64,000 bases of DNA from Escherichia phage T5. The stretch lies in the sequence record NC_005859.1; one strand, written 5' to 3'. The notes beneath the pieces are model-generated. The model was given only the letters and a program-made list of their open reading frames with translations. It did no database searches and was not told the origin of the DNA. The translations under genes and the position numbers were made by a program. Below, one piece after another: positions 347-50,184 of this stretch. Position 1 is the first letter of the stretch. Each line of letters starts with the position of its first letter.

Positions 347-775
347 ATGTTTAATAATGTATTCTCTAAAGAAGCTAATCCAATATTGGTTAATTTTTGG
401 CGTACTCTTCCAGCCAACCTGTACAATGAGGCTATTAATGCTCTAAAAATATGGTGTGAGAATAATGAAATCTCCTTTGCTTTTAAAGGCGAGATTGAAG
501 AAGCTCCCTGTATTGGTTTAATTGTGCAGGTAGAGGATGGTCTTGAAGAGATTGTCGGCTGGAAAGAGTTAGATGAAATGGGCTTGGTTTTTGCATTAAA
601 CTATAAGCTGTTTATGCCTAATAAACACCGTATTGTTGTTAACTATAAAACCAGTGAATCTCCTGGCTTTCAAGTTAATGAACATTACGGTTGGTCTTAC
701 TCACCGGAAGAAGTAAATGATGGTATCCAAAAACTTCGTCGTTTTGGTTATCAAATTCCGGGTTTAACTGCCTAA
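347..775 (+). CDS. hypothetical protein, tandem paralog A
   Basis: 142-aa ORF; shares PCIG...W.EL..MGL..ALN..LF.P...RFGY.IPGL pattern with next ORF. Confidence 0.6.
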   Translation: MFNNVFSKEANPILVNFWRTLPANLYNEAINALKIWCENNEISFAFKGEIEEAPCIGLIVQVEDGLEEIVGWKELDEMGLVFALNYKLFMPNKHRIVVNYKTSESPGFQVNEHYGWSYSPEEVNDGIQKLRRFGYQIPGLTA

Positions 776-784
776 GGAGGCACA

Positions 785-1177
785 ATGGAACAAATATATT
801 GGCGTCAGATTGATCCTAGTTTGGTGAAGTGTGCAGAGAAGCTGCTACAACGTTGGTTGGGGGTAAGACAAGCCTCCTTCACTTTTCCGGAGCAGCAAAT
901 AGACGATCCCTGTATTGGTGTTTTCCTATCAGGCTACGCTGGGGAATGGGAATTGGATTGGAATGAATTGTCTGCTATGGGTTTAATTGTTGCACTAAAT
1001 TTCTCTTTGTTCCATCCACGTGGTTTGGCTATATGTCGTGTGCCTGATGATGGTTGTTCGCCCCATCTTTTACGGGTGGAAGATGATATTTGGGAGTACA
1101 CTCCAGATACTCTCAAAGAAGCTAAAGAACAGTTAAACCGTGTTGGGATCTATGTTCCAGGCCTGAATGATGAATGA
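785..1177 (+). CDS. hypothetical protein, tandem paralog B
   Basis: 130-aa ORF; RBS aaggagg upstream; clear similarity to 347..775 product. Confidence 0.6.
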   Translation: MEQIYWRQIDPSLVKCAEKLLQRWLGVRQASFTFPEQQIDDPCIGVFLSGYAGEWELDWNELSAMGLIVALNFSLFHPRGLAICRVPDDGCSPHLLRVEDDIWEYTPDTLKEAKEQLNRVGIYVPGLNDE

Positions 1178-1794: not shown

Positions 1795-4581
1795 GTGTTT
1801 TCTATCCTCCAAGGTCACGCCGGATTTTCTCGTGATTTAGCAACAGGTATTTGGCGAGAAATCAAAGCGGAAGATTATACCTTTGCCAAGCGATTCTCGA
1901 AAGAGCATCCAGAAGGTAAACCAGCTTCTATGCCCTTCAAATTTGATGTAATAGAAGAGCACGACCCACAAAGCCTTGCCGAAATGTTACCCCTCATGAG
2001 ACGTTTAACGTCTGACCCTCATATCGTTGCGGTGCGAGGTCGATGTCTCGCACCTAAAAATAATGTGCGACGTAAGAAAGGTAACTTTAATGTATCTAAT
2101 CCTAGTAATATTATTGCTATGGACGTGGATGGTATCCTAGATACCGGTGGGTATGACAAATTTAATCTTGTTGGTATGGCCCGCCACATTATTAAGATGT
2201 TGAATAGTATTAGTGAGGATATGTTTCCTCTTGATGCAGGGTTTATTGCTCATGCATCGTCTTCGGCTGGGCTAAAACCAGGTATCCGAATGCACTTAAT
2301 GCTAGAATCTAACGTCAAGGTAACTCAGGGTCAGCTAAAGTTCTTATTTACATCTATCAACGATAGTAGTAAGCAAAAATTTGGTTTTGATATTGCCGAC
2401 CTAGCTTATTATTCATCTGTCCAGCTCCACTATTTTGCCGACCCCTTATTTAGCGATGGTATTGTTGATCCGTTTAAAGCGGAGAGTAAGCCACGTCTGG
2501 TGTATGTTAAAGGTTCGAAAGTAAATTTGCCCAATAATCTGGTTGACTATGAAACAACTAGAGGGGAGTTTAAGGAAGAGTTTTATTCTTTACTTGATCA
2601 AATTAAAGGCAAAAAGATTGCTTCTGATAAAGTAGAAGAAACCATCAGCGAGTTAGAAGAGGCTGATGATGGAGTGTATTTGCGTATTATCCCCAAACTA
2701 TACCATAGAGCATTAGAGGATGGTGTTGATTTTGCATGGCTAGAACGTGAGATTAAACCAGCTTTATCTGAATATATTGCAACTAAAGATAACAGTCGTA
2801 ATATTCAAGATTACTTTAATAACGGTCGTAAGCAGGCTCTCAAAGCGTTTGTTAATAATTCTAAACGTGAGATTCCATTAAATCTGAAAGGTGTTCCACT
2901 TAAGAAATTAGAAGTGGATTCTCCACCAGAAGTTCCATACCTGAAGATTAACATTGTGCCCCCAAAAGGCCATATAACATTTGTTAAGGCAAGTCTTGGT
3001 ACTGGTAAAACTACGGCAGTAACTAAATGGCTGGACGCAGGTGTTCTTCCAGGCAACTTTTTAGCAGTTACAAATACTAGAGCACTGGTATCTTCAAATG
3101 CCAAGAAATTTAGTGCAGGACAATACGATAAGTCTGTAGATATGCTCAACTTTAAACGTGGAGCTATCGATCGTATGTCCACAACTATTCACTCTTTGCA
3201 TAAGTTCAAAAGTTTTATTGGGCAAATAGACACCATTTTTATTGATGAATGTGACGCTGTAATGAATGACCTATTATTCGCCCCTGTTGTTAAACAACGT
3301 CGCGAGTGTATTCAAGTTCTACGTGACATCCTTATGACAGCTAAGACTGTAATCTTATCCGATGGTGATATTAGTGCTGAGACGATTGAAGCATATGGTT
3401 CTCTAATTGATTTTGATAAACCAGTAGCATTTTATAATCATCACCGTAAAATGCTGTCAAAAGCACACGCTTATGAGTTTCCTGATGAATCCAGTATTTG
3501 GGTTGCACTTCAGACTTCTCTAGAGATGGGTGAGAAATCTATTCTAGTATCTGATTGTGGCCCGGATGAGCTGAATGAGAAGGGTATGGCACTGCGTCGT
3601 AATACGGGTGCGTTAGTTAAGGAAATCCATTCAAACTCCACCTCAGATGTGGATATTCGACGTATTCTGGATTATACAACTAATGAGCTAATTGATCAAC
3701 AAATTGATTGCTTATTATGTAGTCCATCCGTAACGAGTGGCGTTGACTTTAACTATTTCGATAATGTGTTTGTTATTACTAGAACCAGTAATCAAGCGCC
3801 AAACATGCGTTTCCAAGCAATCAGGCGCGACCGTGGTGCCCAGAACATCTATTATTTTATTGATAAATCTACGAGTGGATTCTCTGCAGGTTCTGAGCAA
3901 TATAATATTGATGAAGGTTGGCTGGAGTTAGCACAGCAATTATACGCACGTCGTAGAGAGCTGGAATCTAGAAACTATACTAGTACCTTACGTTATTATT
4001 TGCTTGATCAGGGTGCAACTATTGATATTTTCAGCGAAAGCTGGGGAACTATTGAAGGTGCTGGTAAAGAATATACAGAAGAGCGAATCAAAGCTATTCT
4101 GCATTCAACTCCAGATTATTGTGCCCCACGTCATGCAGATGCATATGAAGCTAAACTACTTCTTGTTCGCTATTATCATCTTGAGTCTATTAAAGATGTA
4201 ACAGTTGAGCATGTCGAACAATATATCAAAGATAAACCGAATGATCGAGCTGCATTCTTCCATAAGATGCACGAGATGTTCTGGGAAGATATTAAGAAGT
4301 GTTCAAATGTGACCATTAAACCATTCATAGAGGCTCTGAAAGGTAAGAAGAAAGACTTCTTCCTTAAAACAGGTCAGAGTGCCAACCCAAAATATGCTAG
4401 AATGTATCTTGGTATGATGGGTATTGGTAAGGATATGAACACTGAAAATATTGTAGACTGGTACAGAACCTATTGTAAAATCGAGTGTATGCCAATTCCT
4501 TTCAAATTCATGACAGAGGAAGAGAGGGCTATGGCAGAAGAAGTAATGTCCGAACTTGGAGCAACTAATGAAGATGCATAA
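1795..4581 (+). CDS. large P-loop ATPase, putative replication/origin-binding helicase-like protein
   Basis: 928-aa ORF, GTG start with RBS aggag; Walker A LGTGKTT; Walker-B-like FIDECD. Confidence 0.7.
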   Translation: MFSILQGHAGFSRDLATGIWREIKAEDYTFAKRFSKEHPEGKPASMPFKFDVIEEHDPQSLAEMLPLMRRLTSDPHIVAVRGRCLAPKNNVRRKKGNFNVSNPSNIIAMDVDGILDTGGYDKFNLVGMARHIIKMLNSISEDMFPLDAGFIAHASSSAGLKPGIRMHLMLESNVKVTQGQLKFLFTSINDSSKQKFGFDIADLAYYSSVQLHYFADPLFSDGIVDPFKAESKPRLVYVKGSKVNLPNNLVDYETTRGEFKEEFYSLLDQIKGKKIASDKVEETISELEEADDGVYLRIIPKLYHRALEDGVDFAWLEREIKPALSEYIATKDNSRNIQDYFNNGRKQALKAFVNNSKREIPLNLKGVPLKKLEVDSPPEVPYLKINIVPPKGHITFVKASLGTGKTTAVTKWLDAGVLPGNFLAVTNTRALVSSNAKKFSAGQYDKSVDMLNFKRGAIDRMSTTIHSLHKFKSFIGQIDTIFIDECDAVMNDLLFAPVVKQRRECIQVLRDILMTAKTVILSDGDISAETIEAYGSLIDFDKPVAFYNHHRKMLSKAHAYEFPDESSIWVALQTSLEMGEKSILVSDCGPDELNEKGMALRRNTGALVKEIHSNSTSDVDIRRILDYTTNELIDQQIDCLLCSPSVTSGVDFNYFDNVFVITRTSNQAPNMRFQAIRRDRGAQNIYYFIDKSTSGFSAGSEQYNIDEGWLELAQQLYARRRELESRNYTSTLRYYLLDQGATIDIFSESWGTIEGAGKEYTEERIKAILHSTPDYCAPRHADAYEAKLLLVRYYHLESIKDVTVEHVEQYIKDKPNDRAAFFHKMHEMFWEDIKKCSNVTIKPFIEALKGKKKDFFLKTGQSANPKYARMYLGMMGIGKDMNTENIVDWYRTYCKIECMPIPFKFMTEEERAMAEEVMSELGATNEDA

Positions 4582-5086
4582 ACCAATGCCTCCTATGGCA
4601 TTTATCCTAGAAAAGCTTAGGTATGACGAAAGTACCGGGGACTTAATTTGGTTATCTGGCCCAAGGAAGGGAAAGGTGGCGGGCTCCAAAATGAAAACTG
4701 GAAGACAGTTAGAGTTTACGATAAATGGGGAGCGGACAGCTTACTTAGCCCATAGAATAATCTGGTTTATAAAGACAGGCGAAGATCCTGGGGATAAAAC
4801 TATCGACCACAAAGACGGTGATAGTTTAAACAACTTGTGGGATAATTTACGTAAGGCTACCTATTCCGAAAATGGAAAGAATAAGAAGTGTTCTACTAAT
4901 TCTACCGGATTCACTGGAGTTGTAAAACGAGGTAATAGATATATGGCCTACGCTTACTGCGAGGGAAAGCAGCATATTTTTGGTAGACGAGATACCCCGG
5001 AAGAAGCCCATCAGCTATACCTTAGGGGAGTTAAAGAACTGTTTGGTGAATTTAATCCCTCGGAGAGATATGACAGTGAAGAATAA
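4556..5086 (+). CDS. HNH homing endonuclease with AP2-like DNA-binding domain
   Basis: 176 aa; AHRIIW...IDHKDGDSLNN..NLR.AT..EN HNH motif; C-terminal TGFTGV..RGNRYMAY AP2-like segment; start overlaps preceding gene. Confidence 0.75.
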   Translation: MEQLMKMHKPMPPMAFILEKLRYDESTGDLIWLSGPRKGKVAGSKMKTGRQLEFTINGERTAYLAHRIIWFIKTGEDPGDKTIDHKDGDSLNNLWDNLRKATYSENGKNKKCSTNSTGFTGVVKRGNRYMAYAYCEGKQHIFGRRDTPEEAHQLYLRGVKELFGEFNPSERYDSEE

Positions 5087-5303
5087 AAAATGGGAAACAA
5101 GGAAGTTTCCAGTAAAAGAACGTAAAGTTCCTGTTTATGATACTTCGGAGAAGCTATGTAGGGTGGTACCGCACAGATTAGCTGGCATCCCTAACATATC
5201 CGAATGGTTACTTAAACAACGGAGGACTAGCGTATCCCTTCGCATAGGGTTTGAGTTAGATAAAGTATATGCTGAACTTTCTTCTTTGCTCAAAGAATCA
5301 TAA
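5070..5303 (+). CDS. hypothetical small protein
   Basis: ATG overlapping HNH stop, RBS ggagaga; longer upstream start at 4980 would overlap HNH coding. Confidence 0.3.
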   Translation: MTVKNKKWETRKFPVKERKVPVYDTSEKLCRVVPHRLAGIPNISEWLLKQRRTSVSLRIGFELDKVYAELSSLLKES

Positions 5304-5312
5304 AAAATTTAT

Positions 5313-5341
5313 TTGCTTTCAGGAAAATTTTTCTGTATAAT
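5313..5341 (+). promoter_or_regulatory. T5 early promoter, sequence matches PN25
   Basis: -35 TTGCTT 5313-5318, 17-bp spacer, -10 TATAAT 5336-5341, AT-rich upstream and ATAAATTTGAGAGAGGAG downstream; identical to my memory of PN25. Confidence 0.85.
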
Positions 5342-5371
5342 AGATTCATAAATTTGAGAGAGGAGTTAAAT

Positions 5372-6076
5372 ATGGCTGGTTCTCGCAGAAAGAAACATAT
5401 CCATGAAATCCCGGATGAAGTCTTTAAAAAAGTTATAGAGCATCTGGAAAACGGTGGTACTAAGAAAGCAGCATGTGAAATGCTCGGCGTATCATCCAAT
5501 CCAACTATGGAAAGGATGATTGAAGAGTGGCAAGACCGCCAGATTCAAGTTGCCGAAATGAAGAAAAAGAAACGTGGTACACTCATTGAAGGTATTGAGT
5601 TGGCCAACGTTATTGAACAGTATCTATCTGGCGATTCTTTCGAAGAGATTGCCGATCGTAATTACCGCTCTGTAGCAATGGTTAAATCTGTTCTGGAACG
5701 CTATGGTGCTCTGCTTCGTTTGAACGATATTGTAGATCCATTGAATCCACCAATTATTCCTGATGATGCTGTAGCAGAAGAATTTGAGGTAGGTGAGCTT
5801 GTTTGGGTTCCTGGATACCAGTGTATTGGTGAAATCAAAAAAGCAATGGATAACCCTGTTGGTTGTTACCGTGTTTGGCTTCTATCAGAAGGCAAACAAC
5901 AGAACGTTCATTATATGAATTATGAGCTGGCCTCTGTTAAACACCTGGAAAAGTTAGGGGTTGATGTAAAATCTCTGGGGTATAAATGGACTCGGGAAGA
6001 AGTCATTACGTTGATTAACGAAGCTGTTAAGGCCGCCTTGAAACTTGATAAAGAAAAAGGAAAACGCCGTGAGTAG
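5372..6076 (+). CDS. hypothetical protein with probable N-terminal helix-turn-helix
   Basis: ATG at 5372 sits 6 nt after RBS gagaggag and downstream of the PN25 start site; the track start 5354 lies at the transcription start. Confidence 0.7.
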   Translation: MAGSRRKKHIHEIPDEVFKKVIEHLENGGTKKAACEMLGVSSNPTMERMIEEWQDRQIQVAEMKKKKRGTLIEGIELANVIEQYLSGDSFEEIADRNYRSVAMVKSVLERYGALLRLNDIVDPLNPPIIPDDAVAEEFEVGELVWVPGYQCIGEIKKAMDNPVGCYRVWLLSEGKQQNVHYMNYELASVKHLEKLGVDVKSLGYKWTREEVITLINEAVKAALKLDKEKGKRRE

Positions 6077-48867: not shown

Positions 48868-50184
48868 TTATTTACCACGGGAAATAGAGTAAATTCCATA
48901 GCGGAGCGCATCACAAAGGTGAGAGTTAGCATCATGACGTGGTTTTTCACGTGATAATTTCTCTTCGCCTTCTTGGAAGTCCCACTTATAGTTCTGCAAT
49001 GCATGAATTAAGGAGGAACATGAAGCATCTACAATAATCTTGCCCTGCTGGAATAGCGCTTGCAGGCATGCTAGACCATCTAGGACAGACTTTTTAGCTG
49101 GAGCAGATGCAATTTCATGCTCATATGCTAAATCCTGGCGGAACTGAGCTGCTGCAGAGTCAACAAAAATACGATCAACTTTATAACGATCTATACAGTG
49201 CTGAATATAAGCAGCATGCTGAGCTGTAGTTTTCTCCGCCTGCTGGTACTCTTCTAATACATAGTAAGTATCCGTATCGTAATGATATTTAATAGTAAGA
49301 ACTGCTGTAGGATCACGATAACCAACGTCAATACCAAGCAACGTTTCGAATGCTTCATCATCTTTAAAGAAGTGACGCATACCTTTGAGGTCTTTAACAT
49401 GATCGATAGCATTAAAGGTATCAAAGATCTGGCCCTCGAATACAGAGAAGTCAGCCTCGTATTCTTGGCGGAAGTAGTTTTTACTAACTGTACGGCGTGC
49501 TTCCTCAATATCATTCAAGTCAGCACGTGGGTTATCACGATATGTACCATGAATAGATACCCAGTTAGGCAACGTATCATCAAATCCGTAGGCGTAAAAC
49601 TCTTTAAACCAGTTACCTCCACGAGGGGTGGAAATAAATAGAGCCTTAGAATTAGGTTTATCCAGAGTAGGACGCAGCTGAACCCTGAAAGCATCACCAC
49701 CCACATCGGAAATTGCCGCTTCGTCAAAGATGATAAAATCATATGAACGTCCAACTGCGGAGTCAGCCTGCGCCGCAGAAGCTAGTTTGAAGAGCGAGCC
49801 GTTTGCCAGCTCAATCTCTTTATCTTTGGCGTTTTCACGTTCGGTTTGTAGGCCATACTTCTTGATAAGACCACGAATCTGTGACCAACCAATGTTAGCC
49901 AGTGAGTAGTTAGGGGCAACTACTAGTACCTTCACATTAGGTTCCAGCAATTTTAGGAACCCAAGTGTGTATGCGATGAAGGATTTGCCTACACGACGTG
50001 ACACACACGCTGTTACAAAACGATGTCTAGGGTCCTCTAGGGCATTAATAATCGCTATTTGAGGACCATTAGGTGTAATACCTTCTTGTGCTAGTATTCC
50101 TGAAACAGGTAGACGAAAGAAACGTTTATCTATCCCGAAATCGATAACATCTACTGTATTAACGTAGGGTCTTGATACTTCCAT
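48868..50184 (-). CDS. terminase large subunit
   Basis: 438 aa; Walker A CVSRRVGKS; Walker B IIFDEAA; C-terminal RNaseH-like nuclease region. Confidence 0.85.
   Translation of the reverse strand: MEVSRPYVNTVDVIDFGIDKRFFRLPVSGILAQEGITPNGPQIAIINALEDPRHRFVTACVSRRVGKSFIAYTLGFLKLLEPNVKVLVVAPNYSLANIGWSQIRGLIKKYGLQTERENAKDKEIELANGSLFKLASAAQADSAVGRSYDFIIFDEAAISDVGGDAFRVQLRPTLDKPNSKALFISTPRGGNWFKEFYAYGFDDTLPNWVSIHGTYRDNPRADLNDIEEARRTVSKNYFRQEYEADFSVFEGQIFDTFNAIDHVKDLKGMRHFFKDDEAFETLLGIDVGYRDPTAVLTIKYHYDTDTYYVLEEYQQAEKTTAQHAAYIQHCIDRYKVDRIFVDSAAAQFRQDLAYEHEIASAPAKKSVLDGLACLQALFQQGKIIVDASCSSLIHALQNYKWDFQEGEEKLSREKPRHDANSHLCDALRYGIYSISRGK

Follow-up and report, generated by a model that had tools for sequence, protein, structure and literature searches.

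A conserved and unequally diverged pair of DUF7415 paralogues in the early region of phage T5

Two adjacent early genes of Escherichia phage T5, T5.106 and T5.107, encode genuine paralogues of the DUF7415 family, and both are functional genes under purifying selection. The upstream copy, T5.106, has lost a set of polar residues that the downstream copy and the single-copy relatives keep, and the duplication that produced the pair is very old. The genes lie at positions 347-1177 of a 64,000-nucleotide stretch of T5 DNA (NC_005859.1), referred to below as the window. Positions 1-1800 of the window match phage T5 strain st0 at 100% identity (AY692264, starting at its position 49695) and AY587007 at 99.9%. 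All naming schemes annotate the products as hypothetical proteins. The genes and the junction between them are as follows.

347-775, + strand: upstream paralogue, T5p104 (AY692264), ORF098 (AY587007) or T5.106 (NC_005859); 142 amino acids, isoelectric point (pI) 4.8; degenerate DUF7415 core
785-1177, + strand: downstream paralogue, T5p105 (AY692264), 'Aeh1ORF298c-like' (AY587007) or T5.107 (NC_005859); 130 amino acids, pI 4.5; canonical DUF7415 core
774-780, + strand: Shine-Dalgarno sequence AAGGAGG of the downstream gene, which overlaps the TAA stop codon of the upstream gene (773-775) and precedes the ATG at 785

The two proteins belong to one family

A preliminary description of this DNA, made from its letters, had proposed that two neighboring open reading frames (ORFs) form a tandem paralogous pair, and the positions and lengths that it gave are exact. 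The proteins align over 124 positions with 40 identities (32%) and one gap (BLASTP, 68 bits, E=2e-20), so the pairwise alignment that it proposed as a check is significant. Scored without composition correction, the alignment reaches 66.2 bits, and 200 shuffles of one partner give a mean of 11.7 (standard deviation 5.2, maximum 21.9), which corresponds to a z of about 10. All the motifs quoted as shared (PCIG, W.EL, MGL, ALN, LF.P and a C-terminal R.G...PGL) are found in both proteins, and the predicted secondary-structure topology, taken from AlphaFold2 (AF2) models, is also the same in both.

Profile searches place both proteins in Pfam DUF7415 (PF24187), with 114.2 bits for T5p104 and 104.8 bits for T5p105 against a gathering threshold of 27, and in PHROG 2502, which is covered end to end (T5p104, E=2.8e-62, residues 11-142 on profile 2-134; T5p105, E=2.6e-60, residues 1-129 on profile 4-134). 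The UniProt relatives of the T5 proteins are likewise called 'DUF7415 domain-containing protein', and the annotation table of the CRISPRi-ART study lists T5.106 and T5.107 both under phrog_2502 (PMC11879866). Because the two proteins share the Pfam and PHROG families, their paralogy is already catalogued. The genes, the family and the paralogy are thus known, and the finding of a pair is correct but ordinary: it concerns hypothetical proteins of a well-studied phage, whose paralogy is implicit in their family membership. The T5 proteins differ from the rest of PF24187 in two respects. T5-type members, which are of the Demerecviridae type, are two-part proteins, whereas most other members consist of a core of about 55 amino acids, alone or fused, and the T5 upstream copy lacks the most conserved polar residues of the core.

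Some family members carry the labels 'tail tube protein', 'exonuclease', 'Phage exonuclease (ACLAME 70)' or 'tail assembly protein'. These labels occur in the records of phages JLBYU43, GSP044, ESCO30, T5_ev219 and vB_Kpn_3, and no search made here backs any of them.

The ordered pair is conserved across genera

A tblastn search with the upstream copy hits 1033 places, spread over 522 phage records at two per record. Both genes are present in the same order in all 28 T5-like IMG/VR loci, and the gap between them is 9 nt in 27 of these loci and 10 nt in the remaining one; the two genes are presumably translationally coupled. The pair is also found in Klebsiella Sugarlandvirus, where each gene matches its positional counterpart: the upstream gene matches T5p104 with E=8e-24 versus 8e-12 for the downstream gene, and the downstream gene matches T5p105 with E=3e-24 versus 1e-5 for the other gene. 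Orthologues thus resemble each other more than paralogues do. The same pair is present in a metagenomic relative (L012). Single-copy members occur among T5-like relatives as well, namely in L008, L010, L011 and Pectobacterium phage My1. In a neighbor-joining tree, built without bootstrap support, the upstream and downstream copies fall into separate deep clades, and the single-copy relatives are found in both.

These comparisons indicate that the duplication is older than the split of Tequintavirus, the Epseptimavirus-like phages and Sugarlandvirus. The simplest reading of the sequence relationships would be an old duplication followed by loss of either copy in some lineages, and the pair of a further relative, L014, may be an independent duplication. 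The pair had been described as a local duplication of an unknown early gene. The duplication and the early region are borne out, with the paralogues lying behind annotated putative early promoters and followed by a terminator, but the sense of a recent, local event is not, since the ordered pair is conserved orthologously across genera. The DUF7415 family as a whole is found in 831 of 50,697 sequenced phage records (about 1.6%).

The two copies diverge unequally

For relatives at three levels of divergence, the ratio of non-synonymous to synonymous substitution rates (dN/dS) ranges from 0.03 to 0.10 in the upstream copy and from 0.07 to 0.34 in the downstream one. The start and the N-terminus of the 142-amino-acid ORF are conserved in the 28 loci.

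Five core residues, N60, S63, H77, A82 and R85 (T5p105 numbering, used for this set throughout), are kept in every downstream and single-copy gene of either clade. In two-copy phages, most or all of the five are gone from the upstream copy: the loss is seen in T5, Sugarlandvirus, L012 and P0062, and partly in L014. P0062, a representative sequence, groups with the L012 upstream copy. In T5p104 the replacements are N60 to K, S63 to D, H77 to M, A82 to R and R85 to V, together with G80 to K. The T5p104 core retains W72, G79, L80, N85 and S105 in its own numbering. G66, L67, N72 and S92 of T5p105 are retained in all copies and look structural. Because the set of five can be lost only where a second copy exists, it is the best candidate for a functional site. 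The contrast between the canonical and the degenerate copy thereby also pinpoints the residues worth mutating.

The copies do not evolve in step. In two Epseptimavirus-like phages (L039 versus L043, positions 2563-3411), the upstream copies differ by a dN of 0.006 and a dS of 0.18, whereas the downstream copies differ by a dN of 0.218 and a dS of 0.65, and carry an indel in the loop formed by residues 46-58. Indel variation in this loop of the downstream copy is seen among Epseptimavirus-like phages more generally. The evolution of the two copies is thus uncoupled, since the upstream copies are near-identical where the downstream copies have diverged. Such a contrast points to recombination with a breakpoint between the two genes, or to a hypervariable loop on the surface.

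A shared core with lineage-specific additions

The family profile was run against 1.84 billion representative proteins and gave 155 matches. Only about 20 of these cover the whole length, and the remainder align at profile positions of about 58-112 alone, which defines a core of about 55 amino acids with the consensus W-N-E-L-S..G-L-I..I-N.E-I-L-H-P.G-L-A..R-D-P.T-G.S...L-V..D-G.W-E-Y. Among the 124 core-matching proteins analyzed, 52 consist of the core alone (60-110 amino acids), 38 carry an N-terminal extension and 32 a C-terminal extension. The fusion partners include dATP/dGTP pyrophosphohydrolase (two cases), ASCH/DUF3850 (two cases), Phage_Cox, thymidylate kinase, PGDYG, DUF551 and a ClpX zinc finger. 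The core is found in T5-like, T4-like, P2-like and jumbo phages, alone or fused. Because most matches cover only the core, the T5 proteins are to be seen as an N-terminal part, the core, and a C-terminal helix with an R.G..PGL tail. In T5p105 these pieces are a lineage-specific N-part (1-56), the shared core (57-105) against which it packs, and the C-terminal helix with the conserved tail. The parts map to the window as follows.

389-553, + strand: N-part of the upstream copy (residues ~15-69); strand, long helix and beta-sheet, from the Pfam stretch 15-62 and the AF2 secondary structure
554-700, + strand: core of the upstream copy (residues 70-118), from the motif table and alignments
785-952, + strand: N-part of the downstream copy (residues 1-56), which contains the loop at residues ~46-58
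953-1099, + strand: canonical DUF7415 core of the downstream copy (residues 57-105), WNELS..GL..LN...FHP.GLA..R....G.SP...W.Y., from the representative search (profile positions 58-112), domain extraction and the motif table

The signature W-N-E-L-S..G-L..N....H-P.G.A..R....G.S, present in at least 90% of the family, is complete in T5p105 and partial in T5p104, where W, G, L, N, P and S are all that is left of it; N60, S63, H77, G80, A82 and R85 are gone. The family is acidic, with a median pI of 4.8 and 90% of the cores below 6. This acidity, shared by both T5 proteins (pI 4.5-4.8), argues against DNA binding, and direct binding to DNA is therefore disfavored.

The single-domain members of DUF7415 in T4-like and P2-like phages, such as Aeh1p318, JD18 gp054, the 86-amino-acid protein of phage Miller and PHROG 3954, share the core signature and the predicted core fold with the T5 proteins. 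Their models in the viral structure database BFVD match the T5 model with a TM-score of 0.65-0.79 on the target and a root-mean-square deviation of about 1 Å. They differ in lacking the T5-type N-part and the C-terminal R.G..PGL tail, in occurring as one copy per genome, and in their neighborhoods.

The relation between the two halves of the T5 proteins was also considered. The 53-position Pfam PF24187 model scores each half by itself (the N-half at 56-65 bits, the C-half at about 52), which implies that Pfam treats the halves as repeats. The order of elements in the AF2 model is alike in both halves: a W-turn, a long helix and a beta-hairpin. The N-half and C-half profiles do not recognize each other with or without secondary structure (hhalign probability of 2-3% for N versus C). 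The hidden Markov model (HMM) of the single-domain proteins gives E values of at least 0.18 against the N-halves, and the N-half HMM gives at least 0.02 against the 124 single-domain proteins. A profile search with the N-part finds no match outside the T5-like two-part family. Either the Pfam seed combines two segments that are unrelated, or the proteins contain an internal repeat too old for sequence methods.

The predicted fold has no solved relative

The AF2 model of T5p105, built from a 94-sequence alignment, has a mean predicted local distance difference test score (pLDDT) of 97.1 and a predicted TM-score (pTM) of 0.90. A Foldseek search of this model against the Protein Data Bank (PDB) finds no match below E=0.14, and in BFVD the matches are family members only. 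A small alpha/beta phage protein compared in the fold search superposes over 52 residues at 2.3 Å. Sequence and profile searches of PDB and NCBIfam are empty, the PADLOC anti-phage defense HMMs give no match at E<=1, and none of the known anti-defense or host-takeover families is matched by sequence or fold. The model thus predicts, with confidence, a fold without a solved relative.

Nucleotide and RNA metabolism genes are frequent neighbors

The gene order in T5-like phages is nrdD, small ORFs, Sir2, HAD_SAK_2 (in some), one or two DUF7415 genes, terminator, promoter and origin-binding helicase. In L014, the pair precedes Sir2. In many records of Klebsiella Jiaodavirus/Slopekvirus, a core-only gene of 72 amino acids lies between nrdD and nrdG and overlaps both (phage JD18, L015, 3495-3713). 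In Aeromonas phage Aeh1 (L065), the canonical single-domain protein Aeh1p318 (106 bits) is encoded by a gene that overlaps the stop codon of rnlA (RNA ligase), and Aeh1p322, a homologue of T5p103 (E=9e-22), lies four genes upstream of it, beside td. In T5, T5p103 is the HAD_SAK_2-type neighbor of the pair. The two Aeh1 genes are located as follows.

L065 20958-21191, - strand: core-only DUF7415 gene of Aeh1
L065 23016-23519, - strand: T5p103 homologue of Aeh1

Because Aeh1p322 sits near Aeh1p318, the proximity of HAD_SAK_2 and DUF7415 genes recurs in a T4-like phage. A general linkage of the two families was rejected: it is seen in T5-like phages and Aeh1, but the region around the phage Miller homologue lacks it. 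In phage Miller, the core-only gene adjoins a NUDIX gene, and a NUDIX gene is also near the core gene in L005. In P2-like prophages, the core gene lies just 3' of replication gene A, is sometimes fused to ASCH, and has no nucleotide-metabolism genes nearby. Many of these settings share a flavor of nucleotide, nicotinamide adenine dinucleotide (NAD) or RNA-end metabolism, though not universally.

In one P2-like prophage (L044), an ASCH-DUF7415 fusion directly follows replication gene A and is itself followed by a DUF262/GmrSD-like two-gene cassette (2719-3219, 4154-5902). The position of this cassette we take to be the P2 tin/old defense hotspot.

A knock-down screen scores the downstream copy

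The supplementary data of CRISPRi-ART, a genome-wide knock-down screen (PMC11879866, supplementary files 1, 8 and 16), call T5.107 'Fit', with a mean guide fitness of -2.90 (P=0.0215, 5 guides), and it is one of 17 'Fit' T5 genes; T5.106 is called 'Not Fit' (-3.28, P=0.17). In the same material, strong hits reach about +3, the origin-binding helicase T5.108 is 'Not Fit', and the authors describe T5.107 as 'of entirely unknown function' (PMC11879866). A polar effect is unlikely for T5.107, because a terminator follows this gene and T5.108 does not score. In the full text of the literature, no mention of DUF7415 or of either T5 gene was found outside the supplementary tables of PMC11879866, and the HIDEN-SEQ preprint holds no data on T5 genes.

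Possible functions of the pair

Our preferred reading, which we hold tentatively and at a little under even chances, is that the DUF7415 core serves as a binding module that is small, acidic and without catalytic activity. Its target would be a protein or a small ligand. T5.107 would bear the ancestral binding activity and act as the functionally dominant copy, and T5.106 would be a sub- or neo-functionalized derivative in which the fold is kept and the site is changed or lost. The dominance of T5.107 is supported by its 'Fit' call beside the 'Not Fit' call of T5.106. The two proteins most likely act separately and not as an obligate complex, which is supported by the low pTM of the fusion described below and by the discordant evolution of the copies. 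Judging from the gene neighborhoods, the likeliest arena would be an early module of nucleotide, NAD or RNA-end metabolism, or a host factor that touches this module.

Several points weigh against this reading. We infer the binding module from exclusion and context, and a small catalytic site, or one that binds nucleotides, would explain the conserved N/S/H/R set equally well. The neighbor-joining tree carries no bootstrap values, and synteny is weak evidence of functional linkage because it is largely inherited within one phage family. The T5.107 call is marginal (P=0.02 among 162 genes, with an effect near background), and the screen is insensitive and noisy, as it missed the origin-binding helicase T5.108. 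A heterodimer could still form, as the linker-fusion test yields pTM alone, from 11 true pairs.

Three other explanations compete with the binding-module reading, with which they are not mutually exclusive. The first, which we consider unlikely, is an obligate heteromer in which canonical T5.107 is the active subunit and degenerate T5.106 a pseudo-subunit, the ancestor being a homodimer of a single-copy protein. It would account for the strict co-retention of the genes, their fixed order, the 9-10-nt spacing and the downstream Shine-Dalgarno sequence that overlaps the upstream stop. The one-sided loss of a conserved site is typical of pseudo-subunits, and the site is retained in single-copy relatives. 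We tested the heterodimer by AF2 prediction of T5p104-(GGGGS)6-T5p105, a fusion with a 30-residue linker, using a paired alignment of 11 true pairs and self-paired single-copy relatives. The halves reach a pLDDT of 85-95, but the whole has a pTM of 0.56 (the test gives pTM only, without predicted aligned error, and from 11 true pairs), so that no complex is confidently predicted and the relative placement of the halves is not confident. The upstream copy is, moreover, near-unchanged where the downstream copy has diverged by 22% at non-synonymous sites, and T5.107 alone scores in the knock-down screen, both of which speak against an obligate partnership.

The second explanation, a role in host interaction, which the preliminary description had also suggested, or in anti-defense, is about as improbable as the heteromer. 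Small acidic early proteins would inhibit host or defense proteins, and duplication would widen the target range. The early position, small size and acidity of the T5 proteins fit this idea, as do the horizontal spread of the core among T5-like, T4-like, P2-like and jumbo phages, the P2-like prophage core gene that lies just after gene A and by a DUF262/GmrSD-like gene, and the variable loop with indels in the downstream copy. The searches described above matched no anti-defense or host-takeover family by sequence or fold, however, and the support goes no further than the small and acidic nature of the proteins, their early position and a single variable loop.

Somewhat less probable still is a more specific proposal, that the core is an unrecognized fold in which W59, N60, S63, H77 and R85 form a site for a nucleotide-derived molecule or a host protein. 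Candidates for a nucleotide-derived ligand would be NAD/ADP-ribose, a deoxynucleoside triphosphate (dNTP) or an immune signaling nucleotide. If this were true, T5-like phages would keep a canonical binder, T5.107, for full fitness, together with a re-targeted T5.106, and the pair would be a new class of phage early effector shared with T4-like, P2-like and jumbo phages.

The third explanation, which we regard as improbable and the least likely of those considered, is that the proteins are accessory subunits or regulators in nucleotide metabolism, for example as partners of anaerobic ribonucleotide reductase or of a complex for dNTP synthesis, or that they bind nucleotides. The neighborhoods are its main argument: the paralogues lie downstream of nrdD in T5-like phages, the Jiaodavirus/Slopekvirus core gene is wedged between nrdD and nrdG, NUDIX genes are near in L005 and phage Miller, and the Aeh1 gene, which has td and the HAD_SAK_2 homologue close by, overlaps the end of rnlA. 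Fusions of the core to dATP/dGTP pyrophosphohydrolase and thymidylate kinase point the same way. Against this, P2-like prophages carry the core without such genes nearby, and adjacency is weak evidence in phage early regions, which are rich in such genes.

One version of the nucleotide-metabolism idea was rejected outright. Autonomous glycyl-radical cofactors of the GrcA/YfiD type are small proteins, and the T5 proteins resemble them in being small, in being encoded beside a glycyl-radical enzyme gene, and in having a C-terminal R-x-G-aromatic string. A glycyl-radical 'spare part', suggested by the nearby nrdD and the C-terminal R(V/F)G(I/Y), is contradicted by the motif search: the signature [STIV]-x-R-[IVT]-[CSA]-G-Y-x-[GACV] is in neither protein, and the positive control, TRRVCGYLG at residue 589 of T5 NrdD, is recovered. 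Both proteins give BLASTP E values of at least 1.4 against T5 NrdD and no match to Pfam Gly_radical.

Whichever of these explanations holds, the value of the family as a target lies in its presence in about 1.6% of phage records, in a very confident fold without a solved relative, in a pair kept in all of the about 520 matching T5-like records, and in one copy that is among the 17 T5 genes scored in the knock-down screen. A solved function would provide an annotation for several hundred phage genes.

Features surrounding the pair

Two further features flank the paralogues.

6-344, + strand: C-terminal 112 amino acids of T5p103 (168 amino acids when whole; cut by the window start); HAD_SAK_2-type phosphatase-like protein (Pfam PF18143, E=3e-8) whose gene adjoins T5p104 in the operon
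1201-1226, + strand (1201-1221 in a shorter delimitation): strong Rho-independent terminator after the downstream copy, which ends the operon; found by scan as a 9-bp stem with 5 GC pairs followed by a T-run, and annotated in AY587007

Homologues of T5p103 are labeled 'Sir2 (NAD-dependent deacetylase)' by PHROG 18062 and by several RefSeq records built on PHROG 18062. This label looks like a propagated misannotation, because the true Sir2 is T5p100, further upstream.

Downstream of the pair, positions 1178-1794 form a 617-bp non-coding gap that contains the terminator and an early promoter at about 1268-1297 (TTGCAG ... TGATATAAT). The Rfam scan gives no match in this gap, and its sole match in or near the two genes is by chance (E=0.3, 18 bits versus a gathering score of 86). 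A leader of about 490 nt lies between the early promoter and the GTG at 1795 with which the origin-binding helicase gene begins. The gap has only weak repeats, and it is apparently kept in relatives, in which positions 1-1800 align as a whole at 94-97%.
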